DNA from: Escherichia phage vB_EcoM_EC001
Direction: 5' to 3' (one strand)
Sequence record: MN445185.1
DNA length: 64,000 bases
The notes beneath the pieces were generated by a model. That model was not told where the DNA came from. It searched no databases and saw only the letters and a list, made by a program, of their open reading frames with translations. The translations under genes and the position numbers were made by a program. Of the stretch, positions 39,753 through 63,137 are shown piece after piece (within the stretch, counting starts at the first letter, position 1; the number at the start of each line of letters is the position of its first letter).

Positions 39753-40277
39753 ATGCAAATTCGTTTTAGTCCACCGTGGGAAGTTCAATCTAACATAGAT
39801 AAAGGGGCTGGCGTTAAAAAGTTGGAGGAACTCCAAGCAAGCTTCTTTAACTGGTTATATGACTGCTCGTCGGGCTTTAGTTCCATCATACTGCCAGTGA
39901 GTGACCCTATTTCGATTTATAAATCGATTATGGCACCACCTGCACTTCCGACTCTTTATTATGACCAGGTCTTAAACCTGGTTGAGAAAGGTACGAATGA
40001 AACCCTTGCTGATTTATATGGGGAATCATTCGACGGTCGTTTACGTTGGGTGTTCTCACAACGTGGCGATGTTGTTGTGGCGTCTTTTGCAGAAGCTAAA
40101 TCCGGACCGGGTTTTTCTTTAAGTGAAGACCACGCTGCGAAAAAGATGTTCTGCGCAGAACTTTTTAAATATATGCGTCCCAAGACTCGTGTCGTGGATG
40201 ATACGTTCAGTACGTCGACGCAGTTTGCTGCGCACGAAGTGCTGACGCAGTTGTACGCATGTCATTTATCTAAATAA
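39753..40277 (+). CDS. hypothetical protein (174 aa)
   Basis: ATG 39753 is 14 bp from the divergent minus-strand start; the track start 39699 overlaps that gene. Confidence 0.65.
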   Translation: MQIRFSPPWEVQSNIDKGAGVKKLEELQASFFNWLYDCSSGFSSIILPVSDPISIYKSIMAPPALPTLYYDQVLNLVEKGTNETLADLYGESFDGRLRWVFSQRGDVVVASFAEAKSGPGFSLSEDHAAKKMFCAELFKYMRPKTRVVDDTFSTSTQFAAHEVLTQLYACHLSK

Positions 40278-47484: not shown

Positions 47485-47751
47485 ATGTCTAGTGTTGAAG
47501 CAGTAATCTATTTTGAAAACGATGGGGTCGCAGGGTGTGGCTTCCCGAAGACAACAGGGGTTAAATCTCTGTTGGCAAAGTATAAAGAAGAGCTTAAGAA
47601 AACGGCAGGGCAGAACCCTGGCGTGCCACTGCGTAGTGTTTTTCCTGAGATGGAGAAGGCCGCAAAAACTGATCCGGTGTTGGATATGTTCTGCGGGATG
47701 ATCAAAGAGCGATTCCCTGACATTGATAAGTACCACATTACGCTGGCGTAA
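47485..47751 (+). CDS. hypothetical protein (88 aa)
   Basis: ATG 47485 preceded by AAAGGAGTATT; the track start 47467 has no SD. Confidence 0.6.
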   Translation: MSSVEAVIYFENDGVAGCGFPKTTGVKSLLAKYKEELKKTAGQNPGVPLRSVFPEMEKAAKTDPVLDMFCGMIKERFPDIDKYHITLA

Positions 47752-47754
47752 TTA

Positions 47755-47773
47755 TTATAGAGTAGCTCTATAA
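47755..47773. other. intergenic inverted repeat TTATAGAG/CTCTATAA
   Basis: Read directly; 8-bp arms, 3-nt spacer, no U-tract. Confidence 0.5.
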
Positions 47774-47785
47774 TGAGGTTCGAGC

Positions 47786-53625: not shown

Positions 53626-54505
53626 CACCAAAGTTTACGACGGTAAACTGTCAACAGTGACTCTTAACGCGATGCGACTTACGACCGCGCTATTGACAGG
53701 TGCTGACGTGCAGTACCCACAGAAATCCACGATGAATGAGTTTTATAAACTCATGACCGCGAAGGTTCCCGATGGCGCTACACGTCCGCATTTAGGATAC
53801 ATGTGCGTGGGTAACCGTGGTCACATCGTTGATCAGTCTGATGTTGTGGCAGACGTTGTTCCCGTCGCGAAATCCCCGATTGCGTCAGGGATGTTCTCGC
53901 GCGTTCCATTGGTACTGCGTACGTTGGATAATGACTTGTCTGATGAGCAACGTAAACAGTACGCTTTCCGTACTCGTGAAACTATCGGCGCGCGGGATTA
54001 CTGGGCGTATTATCTGAAACGTATCGACATGCGCGCAGTGAAGACCACTGACCTGGATATCACTCGCGAAAACGGTGTTGAAACCGTCAAAGATTTCGTC
54101 TATACCGATGCGGAACTGAACCCGGTACCGAAAGAACTCCCAGACTACGATTACGACGATGACGGCACTGTAGAGATCCCCGACGGTCGTTATGTTGAAT
54201 CGGGCGCAGACCTGGTGATTCCATGGACTGAGTTTGATGTTCAGGAATACATGAACGTGACGGCGATTCTACGTGGTACGCCACGCAGTTCGATTATCTC
54301 TGAAATTGCGCTGTGCTCTGGCGTTGATACCCCTGAAACGGGTGAGTCGGCTACCGGTTCACAGTTCAGCTACGACGAAGCTATCGGTGTGCAGGCGTTG
54401 TACTACATCTCCCTGTTCACTAACCTGGCACAGACCAACGATCGTCTGTCACTGACCATCCGTATCGGCCAGCCGGCACCGTGGTTCTTAGGGACAGCTA
54501 ACTGA
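53618..54505 (+). CDS. hypothetical protein (295 aa)
   Basis: AGGAGAA SD; overlaps upstream gene end. Confidence 0.7.
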   Translation: MANTKVYDGKLSTVTLNAMRLTTALLTGADVQYPQKSTMNEFYKLMTAKVPDGATRPHLGYMCVGNRGHIVDQSDVVADVVPVAKSPIASGMFSRVPLVLRTLDNDLSDEQRKQYAFRTRETIGARDYWAYYLKRIDMRAVKTTDLDITRENGVETVKDFVYTDAELNPVPKELPDYDYDDDGTVEIPDGRYVESGADLVIPWTEFDVQEYMNVTAILRGTPRSSIISEIALCSGVDTPETGESATGSQFSYDEAIGVQALYYISLFTNLAQTNDRLSLTIRIGQPAPWFLGTAN

Positions 54506-55155
54506 TGCTGATTCCTGAGCCGAGGTTACCCGACAGTATGGTGAGGATTGCGGCTGTTGACCCCGGTACTGCCCATCTTGGGATGGCGGTTATCGACTGG
54601 GAATTTGGCCAACCTCAAGGTGAAGTTGTCTGGGCGGGCACGGCTCATGTTGCGGACCCTACGCACAATGGCTCTTTTGGTGAGTGCGTAGGGAAACGCG
54701 ATGCGCGTTTGGTAGAATTAGAAGAACGCTTTCGTGAGTTTTTAAAACTGGCAAGGCCGACTTTTGTCGCTACCGAAACTCCGTTCATGCGAAGAGCTAA
54801 GCTCTCAGCGTACGAGTCTGGGGTGGAGTTGCAACTGATGTTGCGGCGAACGCTTTGGGACGTGTTTCCCGAAAAATATCTCCATGGGTTTAATCCTATT
54901 ATTGTGAAGTCGTACGTTGGTGTGGAAGCAAAGGGTACAGATAAATCGCATATGCAGCAAGCGGTTACCAAGCTCTACGCTAACCATACCCGGTGCGACT
55001 TATCGGTATTGGATGAACACAGTATCGATGCCGTGGCGGTGGGTAATATCTTCGTCAGGGTCAACTTATTAAACCTAAATAGTCTCCTTCCGCCCAAGGT
55101 TAAAGTTCCTAAAGCTAAGGCTGGTAAGCGGAAAGGAAGACGCCGGAGGAAATAG
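54505..55155 (+). CDS. RuvC-like Holliday junction resolvase (216 aa)
   Basis: N-terminal VRIAAVDPGTAHLGMAV resembles the RuvC catalytic strand; C-terminal DEHSIDAVAVG resembles the RuvC acidic helix; basic tail; alternative start 54538. Confidence 0.6.
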   Translation: MLIPEPRLPDSMVRIAAVDPGTAHLGMAVIDWEFGQPQGEVVWAGTAHVADPTHNGSFGECVGKRDARLVELEERFREFLKLARPTFVATETPFMRRAKLSAYESGVELQLMLRRTLWDVFPEKYLHGFNPIIVKSYVGVEAKGTDKSHMQQAVTKLYANHTRCDLSVLDEHSIDAVAVGNIFVRVNLLNLNSLLPPKVKVPKAKAGKRKGRRRRK

Positions 55156-55736: not shown

Positions 55737-55777
55737 CCTCTTCTCCTCCGGGGGAAGAGGCTTCTTATTTTTTTTAT
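55737..55777 (+). terminator. rho-independent terminator
   Basis: 10-bp GC-rich stem with UCCG loop then T-rich run. Confidence 0.75.
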
Positions 55778-55827
55778 TACGTCTACGTAAATTACTGTGT
55801 AAGCACGACCCAAAAGGAATATAAAAA

Positions 55828-56466
55828 ATGCAATTACAATTTCGTCAACGGTCTGTACTACTACCGTTTAGCGCTATATTAGGTTCGTTTACCAAAATGC
55901 TGTCTGTGGATTTTACTGCAGCTGAGAAAGAAGCGCTGTTATTGGCGGCAGTCGAAGAAGTATTGTGGGAGGCATTTTACGTAGTGCCGTTTCGTAGCTG
56001 CTTAAACGCCCCGTATGTTGAAGGGCAGTTTGTCAGCGCGCTTTCCGCCGCGATTACCAAACGTAAACTAAATGCCATGGCGCATGTCAAAGAGATCACC
56101 GCGCAACGAGGACGGATATTCGCTGCCGTCAGAAATGTGTTAATTAAAGAAGGGTTTCTTGCAGATGCGTTAGGTCCCGAAGTTCCTTGGGAACCAGGCC
56201 ATCCGCCGCGTCAGTTTGACCACGGGTACAAGTTAAATATAATTATGCCACGCGGTAAGCGTGACGTCTCATTGGGGAAATGGTTACAGATAAGTTGGGT
56301 TCGTCCTACTATCGATTGGCAAGAAATGTCGGTCAATCGCTATCTGGAACACCTGGCAAAAACACCGGCACAGTTTCACCGTTCAACAATCCTGCCGCTA
56401 CACATGCTGTTAAAACCGTCCCTGTCATTGGCAGAAGCCAGATACCTGCTTAGTGGAGAGAAGTGA
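55828..56466 (+). CDS. hypothetical protein (212 aa)
   Basis: AAAGGAA SD. Confidence 0.65.
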   Translation: MQLQFRQRSVLLPFSAILGSFTKMLSVDFTAAEKEALLLAAVEEVLWEAFYVVPFRSCLNAPYVEGQFVSALSAAITKRKLNAMAHVKEITAQRGRIFAAVRNVLIKEGFLADALGPEVPWEPGHPPRQFDHGYKLNIIMPRGKRDVSLGKWLQISWVRPTIDWQEMSVNRYLEHLAKTPAQFHRSTILPLHMLLKPSLSLAEARYLLSGEK

Positions 56467-56948
56467 TGCTTGTTATTAATGTGGTCGAGGATAAGATTCC
56501 CGCGAATGTTTATCCTGAACTGGTTGAATGGGTGCGCGACTTAAACAGTATCCGCGAGGAGCCTATTAAACTCACGATGTTTGTTGAGGATGATATCGTG
56601 CGTGGAATCATGGCATGGGAACCTGGCCATTTGGTCTATATGGTAGTGCCCGAAGAATCGCGGCGGGGCGGTGTCGGCAGATTTATGCTTAAGTATCTTC
56701 AGCAGAACTCCGATCGTAAACACATCAGCTGTCGTGTTCACCCGACCAACATTCCCGCGCTAGGATTCTTTCACCAACAAGGCTTCCAGATTGACCGATG
56801 GTATATTGCTGCTGACGGCCAACGGTATTTTCGTATGACGAACTACAATGTTATTTCGTCACACACGCCACCGGAGGAAAAGCTTTTAACTCATTACGCT
56901 GAAAGCGTTCCCATTTTTCTCTCGATGGCAGAAGGTCATTTCGTCTAA
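56466..56948 (+). CDS. GNAT family N-acetyltransferase (160 aa)
   Basis: Motif A RRGGVGRFMLKYL and motif B NIPALGFFHQQGF; ATG overlaps upstream stop (TGATG). Confidence 0.7.
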   Translation: MLVINVVEDKIPANVYPELVEWVRDLNSIREEPIKLTMFVEDDIVRGIMAWEPGHLVYMVVPEESRRGGVGRFMLKYLQQNSDRKHISCRVHPTNIPALGFFHQQGFQIDRWYIAADGQRYFRMTNYNVISSHTPPEEKLLTHYAESVPIFLSMAEGHFV

Positions 56949-56965
56949 ACGAGCGAGAGTGTATA

Positions 56966-57442
56966 ATGATACGTGTTGCTTACGAAACACGAGATACGGA
57001 TGGAACCCGTATAAACGTCATCCGCCGTGTGGAGCTTGTTCCTCAGCATGAACTGAATATTGCAGACAGTTCGCTTAGGGGCACTCCTGTTAAGATTCTG
57101 AATCTTACGAGACGTTCTTTTCATCACAGTAAGACTTCACCAGCAATACGGTCCAGTAAAAGAAAAAGTTATGCCGATTTAAAACATCGGTTGTCCCGGC
57201 ATTTTCGTCGGAGTGCCTGGAAGGCTTTAGTTGAGATTTTGGTTGACGAACACCTTATCCAGAAGTTGGAATGGGAAGAGGTTCTCAAGGAAGCGGGCTA
57301 TCCAACTAAACCTTTCTCTTATCACTGGCATCACTTCAAAAAACAGTTCCATGATACTTTACAGGTATCGCCAAACACTCGCAACATGATTCACCGTTTG
57401 GAGAAAATGGACTGGCTTCTACCCTATCTGGAAGAGGACTAG
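56966..57442 (+). CDS. hypothetical protein (158 aa)
   Basis: GAGAG SD. Confidence 0.6.
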   Translation: MIRVAYETRDTDGTRINVIRRVELVPQHELNIADSSLRGTPVKILNLTRRSFHHSKTSPAIRSSKRKSYADLKHRLSRHFRRSAWKALVEILVDEHLIQKLEWEEVLKEAGYPTKPFSYHWHHFKKQFHDTLQVSPNTRNMIHRLEKMDWLLPYLEED

Positions 57443-57444
57443 AT

Positions 57445-57834
57445 ATGATGCGTGCTGTATTAGCTGTGTTTATAATTTGCGTTACTACGTCAGTATACGC
57501 GTTTACTGTTCAGGACTTCCCGCAATACAAACCAATGTGGGAAACTGACGCACCTGTGAAATTCAGCGACAAAGATGAACCAGTCGTGTCGGTGGAGAAG
57601 GGTGAGTTTGCCGTGGTCAACTACGGACGTTCTGAACTGTGTCCAGGCGGTGGCTTTTATCTCATTAACACAAAGCGTAAGACGTACCAGCCGATAGATG
57701 CCGGTACGTGTTCGCCGAAAGTTAAAGCGACAATTGTCCCGTCAGTACGAACACATCGCAGCGTTAATACCCACCAGTTAACTTTTTGGGTAGGTAAAGA
57801 AATTTCCGCGCGGTATCCTTTGTACGATTACTAA
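57445..57834 (+). CDS. small secreted or periplasmic protein with N-terminal signal peptide (129 aa)
   Basis: MMRAVLAVFIICVTTSVYA then polar mature region. Confidence 0.6.
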   Translation: MMRAVLAVFIICVTTSVYAFTVQDFPQYKPMWETDAPVKFSDKDEPVVSVEKGEFAVVNYGRSELCPGGGFYLINTKRKTYQPIDAGTCSPKVKATIVPSVRTHRSVNTHQLTFWVGKEISARYPLYDY

Positions 57835-57842
57835 ACACAGCG

Positions 57843-57879
57843 TATAGGGGCTTCGGCCCCTATACTGTTTATTATTTTC
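57843..57879 (+). terminator. rho-independent terminator
   Basis: TATAGGGGC-TTCG-GCCCCTATA hairpin, T-rich tail interrupted. Confidence 0.6.
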
Positions 57880-57924
57880 CTGTGAAGTATTATGACCCCC
57901 TTAATCAAATACCAGGAGCGAGGC

Positions 57925-58542
57925 ATGTCTTTTGTTATTGACTTTAACCACCATCATAGTCAAACCTTGCTCGATTTAGTCAATGCTTTTAATGCTGAAA
58001 CCGTTTATACGCCCCTGACCACAGAACGTATCCGAGTGGAGAGTTATGGTCCACCGGAACCGGACGGTCGTGTAAGTGCTTTGCTGACTAATAAGAGTAA
58101 GCCAGATGACTATGTGGTTGTGCGTTACCGCAAATTGAGCTTAAATGATATAATCACGTTGAAGCCTGAACATCTCACATGGTTTGATTTGTCGAAAGGT
58201 AAACCGGCCGATTTGCGCGTATGGTCTGAACCTGCAATGGCCAGTTTTGAATCGGCGTGTGCAGAACGTGGCATCGTTGTAAGTAAGGCGTGGGAAAACC
58301 CCGCGCAATGCCACGTAGAGTACGACATCCCGACTGATCGATACGTCCTCGTCTATGAATGTGAATCATTTGTTTACGAATCGCGCACACGCATTACGCT
58401 ACCGTACCATATCGGCCAAGACTTAACCAAGACAACGTTGCCTGGTCTGGAATACGACTTGGCTGGTTTCTGGGGGCATAAGCTGTTAGAAGAAGTGACT
58501 ATCACGAAGCTTAACGGTTTTCGTTATCGTGAGTTTGTTTAA
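57925..58542 (+). CDS. hypothetical protein (205 aa)
   Basis: ATG 57925 has AGGAG 6 nt upstream; the track start 57892 has no SD. Confidence 0.65.
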   Translation: MSFVIDFNHHHSQTLLDLVNAFNAETVYTPLTTERIRVESYGPPEPDGRVSALLTNKSKPDDYVVVRYRKLSLNDIITLKPEHLTWFDLSKGKPADLRVWSEPAMASFESACAERGIVVSKAWENPAQCHVEYDIPTDRYVLVYECESFVYESRTRITLPYHIGQDLTKTTLPGLEYDLAGFWGHKLLEEVTITKLNGFRYREFV

Positions 58543-58546
58543 GACA

Positions 58547-58590
58547 CTACCCTCGCCCGTTTAGCGAGGGTAGGTATTTATTTTTTTCTT
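58547..58590 (+). terminator. rho-independent terminator
   Basis: CTACCCTCGC/GCGAGGGTAG hairpin then T-rich run. Confidence 0.75.
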
Positions 58591-58623
58591 ACGAATCGTC
58601 CACTCCGTATAGGAGGTAAGTCC

Positions 58624-59223
58624 ATGAAAAAGATTTATAAAATTGCGGTAATCGGTTCTCGGAAGACCGATGAAGATACCATGTCTGAAATGTACATGCG
58701 ATTGTTACGTGGGTTTAATGCGCTGCACGCCAAAGATTACACGATTCGTTTTTCTTCTGGCGGCTGCTGGTGTGGTCCAGACCAATTGCAATTCCGATTT
58801 GCCCGACAGTGGGCGAATACAATAGACCAAGATACCGGCAAGAAAGTGGCGTGGGATGATGAGTTCATTTGTTACCTACCCGATGAGAAAAAGCTCTGGC
58901 TCAGGAAACAGAATCCCAACGTAGAGTTCCGTGTAATCCCTCAGGATGACCGCTATCGTGAGATAGTAGGTAAGCTTCATCCCGCGCCAGAAAAGCTCCA
59001 GGAGTTCGCCTGGGCGCTTCACGGGCGTAATCTGAATATAATTATGGGCGATGATTTAGCAACGCCTGTAGACGCAGTCTATTACTCTGCGCCTTTAGAT
59101 AAACAAGGTAATCCGACCGGCGGTACTGCAATGGGCGTAAAATACGCTAAGCAGTGTGGTATTCCTTGTTACCACCATGCGCTTGAAGGACATCTGTGGC
59201 TTGAGAGCTTGTGCTTATTATGA
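58624..59223 (+). CDS. SLOG-superfamily Rossmann-fold protein (DprA/LOG-like) (199 aa)
   Basis: AGGAGG SD; IAVIGSR, SSGGCWCGPD and PTGGTAMG resemble SLOG glycine-rich loops. Confidence 0.5.
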   Translation: MKKIYKIAVIGSRKTDEDTMSEMYMRLLRGFNALHAKDYTIRFSSGGCWCGPDQLQFRFARQWANTIDQDTGKKVAWDDEFICYLPDEKKLWLRKQNPNVEFRVIPQDDRYREIVGKLHPAPEKLQEFAWALHGRNLNIIMGDDLATPVDAVYYSAPLDKQGNPTGGTAMGVKYAKQCGIPCYHHALEGHLWLESLCLL

Positions 59224-59253
59224 CCACGTTGCCTTTAATCAGAGGTCGCTATT

Positions 59254-59526
59254 ATGCAAACAACCGGTTTAGCTCGTCGTTTGTGGGAAGCCTTCTTCCC
59301 CACGCCATCAAAACCCATTAAGAAGGTGACTAGCCTTCGCTTGTTCCCAGGCACCGAGGATGAGTTCTTCGATTACCTGGAACGGCATGGTTTTGATTCG
59401 AAAGTTGCACCGCAGGAAAATGACCCAATTCAGACGGTCTACACTACACCGGATACGGGTGAAATATTTGCTTTGTGTGTTCGCTGGCCACATCGTAATT
59501 ATTACTACACTTTGACGCAGATATAA
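59254..59526 (+). CDS. hypothetical protein (90 aa)
   Basis: AGAGG SD. Confidence 0.55.
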   Translation: MQTTGLARRLWEAFFPTPSKPIKKVTSLRLFPGTEDEFFDYLERHGFDSKVAPQENDPIQTVYTTPDTGEIFALCVRWPHRNYYYTLTQI

Positions 59527-59536
59527 GGAGCAGGGG

Positions 59537-60670
59537 ATGTCGACGCTCGATTTAGATTTAGAAGTCCTGACTGACGACTACGATCGCCTGGTCGCACTCG
59601 AAGGTCTGGGAGTTAAGCCCGACTTCCCTGCGGTTTGCGCGATTCGTCAGCGTTGGTGCTTAACCGACGACGGTGAAGATATGTTGGTTGCTCGTGAATC
59701 GCGTGAAGCGATGGAGCGTGCTCAGTTTATGACTGATACCGACCCGCGAGCTGGTATCCATCGCGCAGCAGGGCGCATTACTGCGAAGGCTGTTAAAGGC
59801 GCTGGAAAGTTAGTGGGTGCTGGACTAGGTGCAACCGCAAAGGGTGCGGGTAAACTTTCGAAAAAGCTCGCATTACGCTTTTACGATTTCGCGGAAGCGC
59901 TAGCGAAAGAACAAGCCGACCGTTTGAAAGAAATAACTTCGAAAGCTGCTTTCATGGAACGTAAGCTCAATAAGCTTAAAACGCGAATGTCGCTGCTAGA
60001 TGAGCACAAAACACTCGCTGCAGTTGACGTTCACACTAGCAGCTGGACGTCTAAAATTTGTTTTGAAGATCGACCCGATTTTGAAGCGTGTGTTCGGTTT
60101 TCTAAACAAACAAATGCGTACGAAGGCGTCGTGCAAAAGTACACGGTTTACACACGCACTGCTCTGAAGAAAAGCAAAGCATTCGAAGGGCCGGGCTTAA
60201 AACAAATCAGCAAGTCCACAAACTGGGCAGTTAAGCGTGCCGCTGGATTGCTTGGCATCATCGATCCCTTTAAAAAGGTGGAAGCTTTTCCTGTTCCTGG
60301 AAATATCGTTGTGGTTGAGCACCATAGTGGTAAGATCAGTTGGGCAATTGCGCGTGACGGCGATTATGGTGAAACCATTAAATCGCTGGATATGCATCAG
60401 TGTGGGAAAGCAATAGAGGCTGTGGAAGCACTTATCAAATCTATTGCTGCGCGCGGAACAAAGAACCGTGTTGTAGGCTACACTGGTATCTACGAAGAAG
60501 TGGAAGCGATGAAGTCCGAGCTTAAGAACCTGGAAGGGGATGAGCTGAAAGAAGCCACTTTGCGCTACCGCAATGCAATGGCGATGGAAGACGCTTTTAC
60601 CACGGCATTGGTACGTGTGGCGGAGGGTCTAATGGAATGGACGAAGCAATCGCTGGCCGAGGTGAACTGA
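59537..60670 (+). CDS. hypothetical protein (377 aa)
   Basis: AAGGAG SD. Confidence 0.7.
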   Translation: MSTLDLDLEVLTDDYDRLVALEGLGVKPDFPAVCAIRQRWCLTDDGEDMLVARESREAMERAQFMTDTDPRAGIHRAAGRITAKAVKGAGKLVGAGLGATAKGAGKLSKKLALRFYDFAEALAKEQADRLKEITSKAAFMERKLNKLKTRMSLLDEHKTLAAVDVHTSSWTSKICFEDRPDFEACVRFSKQTNAYEGVVQKYTVYTRTALKKSKAFEGPGLKQISKSTNWAVKRAAGLLGIIDPFKKVEAFPVPGNIVVVEHHSGKISWAIARDGDYGETIKSLDMHQCGKAIEAVEALIKSIAARGTKNRVVGYTGIYEEVEAMKSELKNLEGDELKEATLRYRNAMAMEDAFTTALVRVAEGLMEWTKQSLAEVN

Positions 60671-61131
60671 TGAAGATTATTACCATAGTGGGGCCAGACA
60701 CGGCTAACGGCAGGAAATATTCCACAGATATCCTCGCGCTTTATAACGAGCTGGACAAAAGCGAAATAGAAAGCTATCGAAAAGAGACGGGTATTAATGT
60801 CCGTTTTACGCCGGCTAAATCGTTAGCCGAGCGCTTCCGGGGTCGTTTACTGGCGGTCGTGGACGACGGTGTCTTGTATGGCTTTGCGCAATACCGCACG
60901 ATGACTGAAGAGGGTGTGACGATGATGTCGGTATCCTCACTGGTCGTTAGCAGCAGCGCACGTGGTAAAGGTTACGGCACCGCGTTGATGGATGCGGTAA
61001 AGAAATCCGCAACGGAAAAAGGGTGTACAGTTGTTCACCTGTCCGTGAACGCCGGTAACGCTGCCGCGAAGTCGCTCTACGACAAAGCTGGCTTTAAGGT
61101 AGGTGCTTACCAGATGTATTGGAGGGTGTGA
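60670..61131 (+). CDS. GNAT family N-acetyltransferase, tandem paralog 1 (153 aa)
   Basis: Motif A ARGKGYGTALMDAV and motif B NAGNAAAKSLYDKAGF; TGATG coupling. Confidence 0.7.
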   Translation: MKIITIVGPDTANGRKYSTDILALYNELDKSEIESYRKETGINVRFTPAKSLAERFRGRLLAVVDDGVLYGFAQYRTMTEEGVTMMSVSSLVVSSSARGKGYGTALMDAVKKSATEKGCTVVHLSVNAGNAAAKSLYDKAGFKVGAYQMYWRV

Positions 61132-61595
61132 TGAAAATTGTTTTTGTCACCAAGCCCAACTCTCCGTATGGAAAGAAATACTACGCGGACTTGTTAGGAC
61201 TACACAACAAGTTATACGACGATCAGAAAATAAAACTTGCCGACTTAAACGGTCGTGAAGGGTTTAATCAAATCTCAAAACTGGAGGAGGTTTGGGGTGA
61301 AGGTACGCTGTGCGCTTGCGCCGTTGATGACCGTGGTGTGGCTGTTGGTTTCATCACCTTTGGCTACACCAAAAAGGGACAACGTTTCCTCTGGGTATAT
61401 AACTTTTTTGTAGATGAATCGGTTCGTTCACAAGGCGTTGGCCATGAACTGATCGAAGCCGTAGAGAACTATGGCAAATCAAAAGGCTGCGCATGGATGC
61501 AGCTTAACGTGCTCGGTAATAACGACCGTGCTATTGCGTTTTATGAACGTTTCGGATTCCGAACTGAATACCAGGATATGGTAAAGGAGCTTTAA
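61131..61595 (+). CDS. GNAT family N-acetyltransferase, tandem paralog 2 (154 aa)
   Basis: Motif A RSQGVGHELIEAV and motif B NNDRAIAFYERFGF; GGAGGG SD; N-terminus parallels paralog 1. Confidence 0.7.
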   Translation: MKIVFVTKPNSPYGKKYYADLLGLHNKLYDDQKIKLADLNGREGFNQISKLEEVWGEGTLCACAVDDRGVAVGFITFGYTKKGQRFLWVYNFFVDESVRSQGVGHELIEAVENYGKSKGCAWMQLNVLGNNDRAIAFYERFGFRTEYQDMVKEL

Positions 61596-61596
61596 C

Positions 61597-62205
61597 ATGG
61601 TGGCTGTCCGCAGCGTGCCACATCAGACTGGCTCGCGATATACTTTTTGTGTAAAGCGTTTCGGGGCAAGAAATCGCCCTGGTTGGAAGGTGGTACGTGC
61701 GATGGGACAGTTCTGGCAATTACCACCTGGCACGTTAAAATATTTTTCAGTAGACAGAATAACCCGGTTCTTAAACGCGGCTGACCCAAGTCAACGCTCC
61801 AGTTTTATGGCAGGGATCGTTTGTCGTCCCGATGGGAAAACACGCGATGCAACCACTCGTGGAATCTACTGGACAGGACAGAACGCGTTTCAGGTTGGCT
61901 TACCTTGCCTGAAGTGTGAAGTGACACCGTTTAATGGTCCCTACGCCGATGCGCACTTCACCGGTATCTTTGTGTCGTTCCCAGACGACCCGTCTTTAAA
62001 CTACTTTTTATCAGTGGACAAAGACGTCAGTATTGATACCTTTTACAAATACTTGTTGTTTTACAGCCGGTATATCCGCGTGACTCCTGTGCATGAAGAT
62101 TGGTATTATAAAAATCCCTTGAACTATGGGAGGGACAGGAGACTAGAAGGATGTTCTATCGAGAGCTTCAACTCTGTACCGCAGCGCTCCATGGCGCTAA
62201 TGTGA
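61597..62205 (+). CDS. hypothetical protein (202 aa)
   Basis: AAGGAG SD. Confidence 0.65.
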   Translation: MVAVRSVPHQTGSRYTFCVKRFGARNRPGWKVVRAMGQFWQLPPGTLKYFSVDRITRFLNAADPSQRSSFMAGIVCRPDGKTRDATTRGIYWTGQNAFQVGLPCLKCEVTPFNGPYADAHFTGIFVSFPDDPSLNYFLSVDKDVSIDTFYKYLLFYSRYIRVTPVHEDWYYKNPLNYGRDRRLEGCSIESFNSVPQRSMALM

Positions 62206-62522
62206 GCAAGAACGGGGACCTGGAAGACGTCGCGCAAGCCTTACGGGCTGTGTCGGAGGTTGACCAGGTCGACATCGACGCTAAGTATTTAGGCGGCGGT
62301 GTAAAGCGTATTCAGTTGACCGTGCGAGCCAAACATGGCAGCTGCTCGTTACATTTTCGAGTCAGTGCGGATTATTTCCTGGTACTGCGCTCCACATTCA
62401 GTCACGATGGTCGGACTCACCGGGTTCGGTGGATGCACGACATTACTAAATTTGGCTACCCGCTTGCAGAACAACGTAAAGTCGTACATGACTTTATGGC
62501 TGCAGTCGTTGCGGGGTTTTAA
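62151..62522 (+). CDS. hypothetical protein (123 aa)
   Basis: AGAAGG SD; overlaps upstream gene by 55 nt. Confidence 0.55.
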   Translation: MFYRELQLCTAALHGANVSKNGDLEDVAQALRAVSEVDQVDIDAKYLGGGVKRIQLTVRAKHGSCSLHFRVSADYFLVLRSTFSHDGRTHRVRWMHDITKFGYPLAEQRKVVHDFMAAVVAGF

Positions 62523-62534
62523 GGGGAGACTGTG

Positions 62535-63131
62535 ATGTCTGAGATGATTCTCGATTCGCTGTTTTTGATTACGGTTGCAAACATCAATAAAAACGGCAAT
62601 CTTCCAGAATACGTAGACATAAGTCGTCATGGCTTTAAGCGTCGTTATCAAATCGGTAAGGTACTAGAGATTGCCTGCTTAGTAACGAACATGCGTAGAC
62701 CGGTGGAAGGCTGTAGCGTTAAACATGCACAGATGATACTCGGGCGTGCTATTTCAGAAGTACGTCGTAAGCGTCGTCGTGCACCGTATCGCTTTTATCC
62801 TAACTCCACCAAACAGGTGGTCGGTGAGGGGGAAGGTGTGGTTGATTTGCGTGAGGCCAGTTGTAATGTAGGCGGTATTGCACGTGACTGGTTAATGAGC
62901 ATTATCAGTAAGCATCCACGTACACCTACGCCGCAAGAAGGACAGGCGGTACTCGCACTTATGCGTAAGACCCATTTGGTGATTACTGATACACCAAACC
63001 AGGCAGCACGAATGCAGCACTATTTGGCATGTCGTGGCTTCACCACACTTGCAGTACCTTCTGAATACACAGCTGATATTAAACTTCCGCCAGTCCCAGA
63101 TTGGTCTGAACCGACAGTTGATCATCAGTGA
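62535..63131 (+). CDS. hypothetical protein with basic RRKRRR segment (198 aa)
   Basis: AAGGGGA SD; followed by terminator. Confidence 0.65.
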   Translation: MSEMILDSLFLITVANINKNGNLPEYVDISRHGFKRRYQIGKVLEIACLVTNMRRPVEGCSVKHAQMILGRAISEVRRKRRRAPYRFYPNSTKQVVGEGEGVVDLREASCNVGGIARDWLMSIISKHPRTPTPQEGQAVLALMRKTHLVITDTPNQAARMQHYLACRGFTTLAVPSEYTADIKLPPVPDWSEPTVDHQ

Positions 63132-63137
63132 GTTATA

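Follow-up and report, generated by a model that had tools for sequence, protein, structure and literature searches.

Does the run of short genes at positions 55828-63131 (+ strand) of sequence record MN445185.1, from Escherichia phage vB_EcoM_EC001, form an undescribed accessory module, as proposed in a first-pass annotation of the DNA, or does it belong to the conserved genome of a known phage lineage? Here, this block was analyzed within a 64,000-nt stretch of the record, referred to as the window. In our judgement, held with confidence somewhat above even, it represents the conserved gp87-gp98 block of an SPN3US-like phage and combines about four transcription units in a mosaic, in which a late gp93-gp98 unit contains a packaged GNAT acetyltransferase as cargo, with GNAT-A as an exchangeable second copy. 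The gene content originally described was confirmed, while its interpretation as a single undescribed accessory module was not. All 13 open reading frames (ORFs) on the + strand were recovered at the positions first assigned, two of which have better starts at 57925 (gp91) and 62535 (gp98).

Identity and conservation of the gp87-gp98 block

In nucleotide comparison, 48 phage records have matches to the 7.6-kb region. The closest is Escherichia phage vB_EcoM_Lh1B (OK428535), with 98.5% identity and 100% coverage, followed by the Salmonella phages 1252, JN03, SEGD1, and SPN3US, with 97-98% identity and 94-100% coverage. From these matches, the phage of the window is identified as a Seoulvirus jumbo phage of the nucleus-forming, phiKZ-related group, and the block as gp87-gp98 of SPN3US (JN641803 / NC_027402), which had already been sequenced and annotated. 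The products in the window display 92-100% amino acid identity to the SPN3US proteins. Gene order is the same in SPN3US and Lh1B as in the window, with small allele differences from SPN3US, for example in gp90 and gp93. The 461-bp cassette holding GNAT-A is present in Lh1B, JN03, and 1252, but SPN3US and most Seoulviruses, unlike the window, are without it.

The arrangement is also retained in other genera. All 12 of the SPN3US genes are collinear in the Erwinia phage phiEaH2 (Erskinevirus), as are 11 of the 12 in the Erwinia phage Caitlin (Machinavirus), in which gp91 is missing, with amino acid identities of the block proteins ranging from 29 to 74%. Block gene order is likewise kept in L011, a more distant metagenomic relative. 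Furthermore, the ratio of non-synonymous to synonymous substitution rates (dN/dS) is 0-0.37 for all block genes tested, with most values at or below 0.15, indicating purifying selection. The block is therefore conserved, heterogeneous, and partly structural, not a variable accessory island: collinearity in two other genera and purifying selection throughout contradict that description. Nor does it stand apart from the structural genes as had been supposed, since mass spectrometry of SPN3US virions places gp91 in the tail and gp94, gp95, and gp97 in the head. The weaker codon bias initially reported was found against all other genes of the window (codon adaptation index 0.666 vs 0.722, p = 0.001), but not clearly against genes shorter than 400 aa (p = 0.06).

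It should be noted that much of the block was already known. GenBank contains its genes at 97-100% identity, a crystal structure is available for one product (gp88, PDB 7DQG), another has been assayed (gp95, tested together with its orthologs for spermidine acetylation), and four appear in published virion proteomes, so that the module can hardly be called undescribed. As a candidate for a new system, the block matters little. Homologs of established function, such as virion proteins, were thus found for part of it. The matches of gp87, gp89, gp93, gp96, and gp98 are confined to clade-restricted PHROGs of unknown function. Within the block, no Rfam families, tRNAs, or notable repeats were found.

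In the records of phages SPFM1, 5, 6, 7, 9, 10, 12, and 15 (LR535901, LR535903-LR535905, LR535907, LR535908, LR535911, LR535913), the match to the block consists of approximately 40 short pieces, covering 32% of it at about 99% identity, and the annotated "proteins" are chimeric, for example P0030-P0037 and P0046-P0050. These pieces look like scrambled or low-quality assemblies, not real rearrangements.

Signals proposed to divide the block into transcription units

Four hairpins were located, with folding energies of -17 to -20 kcal/mol and z-scores of -3.1 to -6.0, each followed by a T-run, together with promoter-like elements of two kinds, the functions of which are putative:

55737-55760, + strand: intrinsic terminator at the left block boundary; 10-bp stem with 6 GC, T-run; -19.6 kcal/mol, z -3.1
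55771-55782, + strand: T-rich plus TTACG promoter-like element before gp87, resembling the phiKZ middle-promoter motif AAanTTACc
57842-57865, both strands: bidirectional terminator hairpin closing the gp87-gp90 unit; -19.4 kcal/mol, z -4.7
57888-57897, + strand: late-promoter-like element TATTATGACC, with TATG 31 nt upstream of the gp91 start; predicted +1 at G57894
58547-58573, + strand: terminator hairpin after gp91; -19.8 kcal/mol, z -6.0
58583-58594, + strand: T-run plus CTTACG promoter-like element before gp92; conserved in L011, not in the Erwinia phages
59216-59225, + strand: late-promoter-like element TATTATGACC across the gp92 stop codon, with the start of gp93 32 nt downstream; predicted +1 at G59222
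63137-63158, + strand: terminator hairpin at the right block boundary; 9-bp stem, TTCG loop; -17.2 kcal/mol, z -3.9

The flanking terminators noted at first are both real. The left one was found by the terminator scanner, which missed the right one because its T-run begins at about 63167, approximately 8 nt past the stem. Two strong terminators inside the block, at 57842 and 58547, had been overlooked, and with the two kinds of promoter-like motif they suggest about four units rather than the single module envisaged. A TTACG element stands after the hairpins at 55737 and 58547 and, approximately, after that at 63137; phiEaH2 and Caitlin keep the element at 55771 in part. Of nine occurrences of the pattern W5-N-TTAC(G/A) in the window, seven fall in intergenic sequence, which makes up only 6.3% of the window.

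The second kind of element is rarer. Three exact copies of TATTATGACC are present in the window, against approximately 0.12 expected. TATGAC before gp91 is kept in the window, L011, and phiEaH2, the three genomes having gp91, and TATGACC stands at the same distance before gp93 in these three genomes and in Caitlin; the conserved stretch takes in two non-coding bases that follow the gp92 stop. In phiKZ, transcription from late promoters begins at the G of a TATG motif, and middle promoters are marked by AAanTTACc at approximately -24 (Yakunina et al. 2015), to which the TATTATGACC and TTAC elements of the window, respectively, were likened. A scan for sigma-70 promoters returned fewer matches in the window than in shuffled sequence, as is expected because the phage uses its own RNA polymerases. 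The third TATTATGACC copy lies at 39957-39966, within the gp74 ORF and approximately 330 nt upstream of the start of the major capsid protein (40290).

From the hairpins, the TTAC-type elements, the TATTATGACC elements, and the conservation of the latter, we infer about four transcription units: gp87-gp90, a late gp91, gp92, and a late-type gp93-gp98. Read from the left, the left terminator would be followed by a TTAC-type gp87-gp90 unit, a terminator, the late gp91 cassette, a further terminator, a TTAC-type gp92, and then a late-type start at the gp92 stop codon driving gp93-gp98 as far as the right terminator. For the TTAC-type units, starts are predicted near 55800 and 58610. The gp87-gp90 unit and gp92, located behind T-rich TTAC promoter-like elements, would encode non-virion proteins; gp91 would be a self-contained late tail-protein cassette; and gp93-gp98 would supply cargo for the head interior, namely gp94, gp95, and gp97.

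Outside the block, the 49-nt spacer of a divergent gene pair at 47737-47785 contains the palindrome ATTACGCTGGCGTAAT, with a TTAC element on both strands, and may be a bidirectional promoter or operator.

Acetyltransferases of the putative late unit

The genes of the late-type unit are as follows:

59254-59526, + strand: gp93 homolog, 90 aa; phrog_8146
59537-60670, + strand: gp94 homolog, 377 aa, internal head protein; phrog_2497 "internal head protein", E 6e-88
60670-61131, + strand: GNAT-A, 153 aa, strain-variable gp95 paralog, absent from SPN3US; Acetyltransf_1 63.7 bits vs 20.7
61131-61595, + strand: GNAT-B (gp95), 154 aa, 100% identical to SPN3US gp95
61597-62205, + strand: gp96 homolog, 202 aa; phrog_9255; not detected in SPN3US virions
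62151-62522, + strand: gp97 homolog, 123 aa, low-abundance head protein; phrog_8535
62535-63131, + strand: gp98 homolog, 198 aa; phrog_8075

Virion locations were taken from the SPN3US mass spectrometry tables and carried over to the window proteins by identity. SPN3US gp95 is a head protein, with approximately 41 peptide-spectrum matches (PSM) per replicate in virions and 32 in tailless heads, at 48-78% sequence coverage (Scheuch et al. 2023, PMC10052503). Its N-terminus is intact and no protease motif is present (Table S6 of that study), from which it follows that gp95 is without a cleaved capsid-targeting sequence. Through its sequence identity to SPN3US gp95, GNAT-B is thus established as a protein packaged in the head. 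Its neighbors gp94 (approximately 48 PSM in virions and 34 in tailless heads) and gp97 (approximately 13 and 11) are also head proteins, while gp98, found in traces in virion preparations, was classed as non-virion (PMC10052503). In the same study (Table S6), gp94 is listed as probably cleaved by the prohead protease gp245, and the candidate cleavage sites ALE22, ARE54, and AME60 are all present in the window gp94, which is 99.5% identical to that of SPN3US. Like the phiKZ-like internal head proteins (PF12699; SPN3US gp53 and gp54), gp94 is located in the head and has A-x-E protease motifs near its N-terminus, but gp53 and gp54 score 260 and 184 bits to PF12699. It is best regarded as a remote phiKZ_IP relative and probable prohead-protease substrate.

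The three GNATs of the first-pass annotation were all supported by the Pfam family Acetyltransf_1 (PF00583), with 26.2, 63.7, and 65.0 bits for gp88, GNAT-A, and GNAT-B, respectively, against a gathering score of 20.7. The acetyl-coenzyme A (AcCoA)-binding GNAT fold of GNAT-B is intact: motif A (Q/R-x-x-G-x-G/A) reads RSQGVG, its positions are invariant in the family alignment, and the catalytic-type Tyr of A-x-x-F-Y-E-x-x-G-F is invariant across the family. Members of this family were assayed by Li et al. (PNAS 2023, PMC9992855), who expressed candidate spermidine N-acetyltransferases (SATs) in E. coli delta-speG. N-acetylspermidine was formed by phiEaH2 YP_007237670 and Caitlin YP_009292176, which are GNAT-B orthologs of the same length (72% and 53% identical, respectively) and occupy the same syntenic position, directly downstream of the internal-head-protein gene. 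By sequence, no membership in a curated SAT family was found, the best model being PaiA NF053587 with 23.6 bits against a cut-off of 250, and SpeG giving no match; PDB diamine acetyltransferases were matched only weakly (E 5e-6 to 1e-2).

Considered together, these sources indicate that proteomics placed inside the head the very GNAT that had been assayed for spermidine acetylation, a connection made in neither paper: the table of Scheuch et al. 2023 (PMC10052503) gives no predicted function for gp95, and Li et al. (PMC9992855) leave its virion location unmentioned. The synthesis turns the idea of Li et al. of early spermidine depletion into a testable hypothesis of a pre-packaged effector. 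Under this hypothesis, gp95 would be packaged by association with head-internal proteins, not via a cleaved targeting peptide, would exit the head together with the genome and, once in a new host cell, would N-acetylate either a protein target or a small amine, for example spermidine, on which the Erwinia orthologs act. Its ejection and substrate, and any part it plays in host takeover, are putative. T4 Alt and the T4 internal proteins offer a functional analogy only, namely a small transferase in a myovirus head beside protease-processed internal head proteins; T4 Alt is an ADP-ribosyltransferase, whereas gp95 is a GNAT without a cleaved capsid-targeting sequence.

Related GNATs also occur in the more distant jumbo phages Moabite (Serratia) and FBKp24 (Klebsiella), where the gene adjoins a tRNA cluster, not head-protein genes (L006:7001-7477; L007:7001-7477), so that only in the SPN3US/Erwinia clade is the GNAT linked to head proteins. 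Approximately 5 kb downstream of the Moabite GNAT is a DprA-like gene (L006:12255-12899).

GNAT-A occupies the position between gp94 and GNAT-B. It is 34% identical to GNAT-B and approximately 31% to the Erwinia SATs, its motif A reads RGKGYG, and the GC content at third codon positions is 0.58, compared with approximately 0.48 in its neighbors. In the phage collection, a 100% identical copy is present in only three records, 1252, Lh1B, and JN03, out of about 50 related ones. At this position, the window differs from SPN3US by an exact indel of 461 bp, flanked by TGATGAARATT stop/start repeats, and the junctions read TGATGAAGATT and TGATGAAAATT, so that a stop codon is overlapped by the following start codon at both. 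Divergence between the two phages also affects the final ~25 nt of gp94. Alleles 85% and 76% identical were found in Salmonella-associated assemblies and a metagenome, always in the same slot. Compared with L008, GNAT-A of the window displays a synonymous divergence (dS) of 0.97 at a dN/dS of 0.12, while the flanking genes have a dS of 0.01-0.24, indicating that GNAT-A is functional and old in the lineage. Most sequenced Seoulviruses have lost GNAT-A, the alleles of which have moved by recombination. It would represent a second, exchangeable copy of the cargo enzyme, sharing its translationally coupled slot, and recombination at the TGATGAARATT repeats would account for its gain, loss, or replacement. 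As a natural presence/absence polymorphism, it is suited to testing the hypothesis of a pre-packaged effector.

A second variable slot is found between gp93 and gp94 (L011:3529-4858; L005:4876-5865). In phiEaH2 and L011 it holds an additional phiKZ_IP-like internal-head-protein paralog, and in L011 also a 107-aa DUF6527 gene ("BubE", PF20137, E 3e-14).

Several observations weigh against the reading of a late unit with packaged GNAT cargo. SPN3US YP_009153389 (gp95), identical to GNAT-B, formed no N-acetylspermidine in E. coli delta-speG (PMC9992855), and spermidine may therefore not be the substrate of gp95 in the SPN3US lineage. VLGNN is found in SPN3US, in the window (61513-61527, GNAT-B residues 128-132), and in L011, while both SAT-active Erwinia enzymes have VLDNN; by sequence comparison, loss of the acidic residue beside the invariant Asn is a candidate explanation of the negative assay. 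As for gp94, the match to phiKZ_IP (PF12699) is 20.1 bits (E 4e-4), below the cut-off of 27, and pairwise comparison with gp53 and gp54 gave no significant similarity, and gp94 was not taken to be a paralog of either. The promoter assignments depend on the analogy with phiKZ and on motif conservation, the conserved Leu-Leu-stop codons of gp92 coincide in part with the TATGA before gp93, and the hexamer TATGAC by itself is not enriched in the window, so that the weight is carried by the TATTATGACC 10-mer and its conservation across genomes.

A bolder extension is possible but rather unlikely to hold. The slot after the internal-head-protein gene would be an exchangeable "cargo enzyme" position, in which one or two GNATs enter the capsid with no cleaved targeting peptide, are injected, and act before phage expression or the phage nucleus, for example on spermidine or on a host protein needed by early defences. 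The GNAT-A alleles would then be shuffled to change substrate range, or to restore it where GNAT-B lost spermidine activity.

Among the alternatives, it is conceivable, albeit unlikely, that the head GNAT or GNATs act on their own particle during assembly or maturation, acetylating the N-termini or lysines of head proteins or co-packaged polyamines, and are not injected. Such a role is consistent with the abundance of gp95 in the head, at about the PSM level of gp94, with its place in a late-type unit among head proteins, and with its negative SAT result in uninfected E. coli, as would fit a phage-specific substrate; in a 2025 paper, the SPN3US GNAT structure paper, on gp88 and not gp95, is cited in relation to capsid-protein acetylation. 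However, the SPN3US mass spectrometry study gives N-terminal processing by methionine aminopeptidase and gp245 only, with acetylation unreported (PMC10052503), the supply of AcCoA within the prohead is doubtful, and what the Erwinia orthologs acetylate is a host metabolite.

The proposal that the 13 genes constitute one coherent accessory island, expressed as a single unit, dispensable for the virion, and directed at host takeover, toxin-like, or anti-defence action, is improbable, and as a single module it is largely refuted. In its favor, most of the products have no assigned function, and the block shows a slightly weaker codon bias than other genes of the window. Moreover, GNAT and SLOG folds are known in conflict systems (phiKMV Rac, ShosA, the DprA/Smf-annotated anti-Avs ORF83), and the gp95 family acetylates spermidine, which Li et al. 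(PMC9992855) proposed to blunt restriction and the clustered regularly interspaced short palindromic repeats (CRISPR) system. These points are outweighed by the presence of 4 of the 12 SPN3US orthologs in the virion, by collinearity across three genera, and by the two internal terminators and distinct promoter-like motifs that divide the block, while the difference in codon bias vanishes against length-matched genes. In addition, the PADLOC defence models gave no match among the block proteins scanned, which did not include gp94, gp97, and gp98, apart from one insignificant score of 13.4 bits.

That gp95 is a catalytically idle structural head component with a GNAT fold, leaving GNAT-A as the sole active enzyme of the pair, is very improbable: the negative SAT assay, the G beside the invariant Asn where the active orthologs have D, and the repurposed GNAT fold of the chimallin C-terminal domain in the same phage family would fit, but motif A (R-x-x-G-x-G) and the Tyr of A-x-x-F-Y-E-x-x-G-F are invariant at a dN/dS of 0.017, and in most Seoulviruses, which are without GNAT-A, the slot would as a rule be left without an active enzyme.

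Of the remaining genes of the late-type unit, gp98 is better started at 62535, as in the SPN3US annotation. The overlap of gp96 and gp97 measures 55 nt (62151-62205), with gp97 in the -1 frame, and a similar overlap is present in Caitlin and phiEaH2. A programmed -1 frameshift was considered and rejected, as no X_XXY_YYZ slippery heptamer was found, and the two were treated as ordinary overlapping genes.

Genes upstream of the putative late unit

The genes preceding gp93 are as follows:

55828-56466, + strand: gp87 homolog, 212 aa; phrog_8034; absent from the SPN3US virion mass spectrometry tables
56466-56948, + strand: gp88 GNAT acetyltransferase, 160 aa; Acetyltransf_1 26.2 bits vs cut-off 20.7
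56966-57442, + strand: gp89 homolog, 158 aa, strongly basic in its central part; phrog_9187
57445-57834, + strand: gp90 homolog, 129 aa, predicted exported all-beta protein; Sec-type signal peptide, cleavage after VYA (VYA/F)
57925-58542, + strand: gp91 homolog, 205 aa, tail protein; putative monocistronic late cassette between two terminators
58624-59223, + strand: gp92 homolog, 199 aa, single-domain SLOG-superfamily Rossmann protein; phrog_768 "DprA-like", E 3e-47; non-virion

The best-conserved gene of the block is gp92, with 68-74% identity to the Erwinia phages, and members of its family occur in 627 records from diverse phage types. With 19 homologs as input, AlphaFold gave a model with a mean predicted local distance difference test (pLDDT) score of 93.8 and a predicted template modelling score of 0.90. 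The top PDB matches of the model are the Rossmann domain of H. pylori DprA, 5MLL and 4LJK (E 2e-4, probability 1.0, template modelling score 0.46-0.53, 14% identity), with further fold matches to ShosA, YpsA, LOG proteins, and the SLOG domain of ThsA. The label "SLOG/DprA-like" given initially to the protein at 58624 is therefore correct, on the basis of PHROG 768 and of the matches of the model to solved structures. With these proteins gp92 shares the Rossmann-like fold and the motif order GSR...SGxxxGxD...RN...GG(T/S), its own motifs being, in order, GSR, SGGCxxGPD, HGRN, and GGT. DprA has SAM and DML1/winged-helix C-terminal domains, whereas gp92, a single 199-aa domain, is without them. 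At sequence level, gp92 matched no Pfam family at E <= 0.1, including DNA_processg_A (PF02481), and DprA was not reached in PDB by either the single sequence or the profile.

Judged from the model, gp92 most likely binds single-stranded DNA or a nucleotide-derived ligand in replication or recombination. A recombination-related role in binding single-stranded DNA was proposed for the gp92-type family by comparative genomics (Iyer et al. 2021). Two more specific assignments were considered: ShosA is a DprA-like antitoxin and ORF83, a DprA/Smf-annotated phage protein, is a reported anti-Avs factor, but a role for gp92 as a ShosA mimic or ORF83-type anti-Avs protein is only a lead, the similarity found being at fold level. 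Nuclear localisation was not transferred from the "DprA" gp153 of Erwinia phage RAY, with which only the first two motifs are common; gp153 is a YAcAr-type SLOG protein and a distant relative of gp92 (E 8e-6 over 57 aa, hhalign 57%).

In the gp87-gp90 unit, the gp88 product of the window is identical at 158 of 160 residues to PDB 7DQG ("putative acetyltransferase"), the crystal structure of the SPN3US gp88 N-acetyltransferase from Ki et al. (J Microbiol 2022). Its AcCoA-binding motif A reads RRGGVG, and there is no difference of substance between the two proteins. The structure paper is said to have concluded that gp88 has narrow specificity. The adjacent gp89 has a dN/dS of 0.12, measured against L011.

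The signal-peptide protein first noted at 57445 held up. For gp90, the signal peptide was judged from conserved sequence features: the n-region, the h-region, and the A-x-A/F cleavage site are conserved in five orthologs down to 44% identity, with VYA/F, THA/F, AKA/F, and SAA/F as cleavage sites, and two Cys are invariant in all five. The family forms 12 clusters among 1.84e9 representatives, all of them small exported proteins, and distant relatives also have signal peptides. Comparison of the gp90 model (pLDDT 70.5) with solved folds gave no informative match.

The gp91 product is 99% identical to SPN3US gp91 and has no homolog in Caitlin. SPN3US gp91 is a tail protein, with approximately 41 PSM per replicate in whole virions and 0 in tailless heads (Scheuch et al. 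2023, PMC10052503). The start at 57925, as in the SPN3US annotation, is better than the ATG of a longer ORF (216 aa). That ATG (57892-57894) is the ATG within the TATTATGACC element; if the element is a late promoter with +1 at G57894, the longer ORF would be untranslatable and the start at 57925 would be right.

Just upstream of the block region, gp85 (window 54505-55155) is a RuvC-like Holliday-junction resolvase, matching phrog_159 with E 2e-38 and the Pfam family RuvC weakly.

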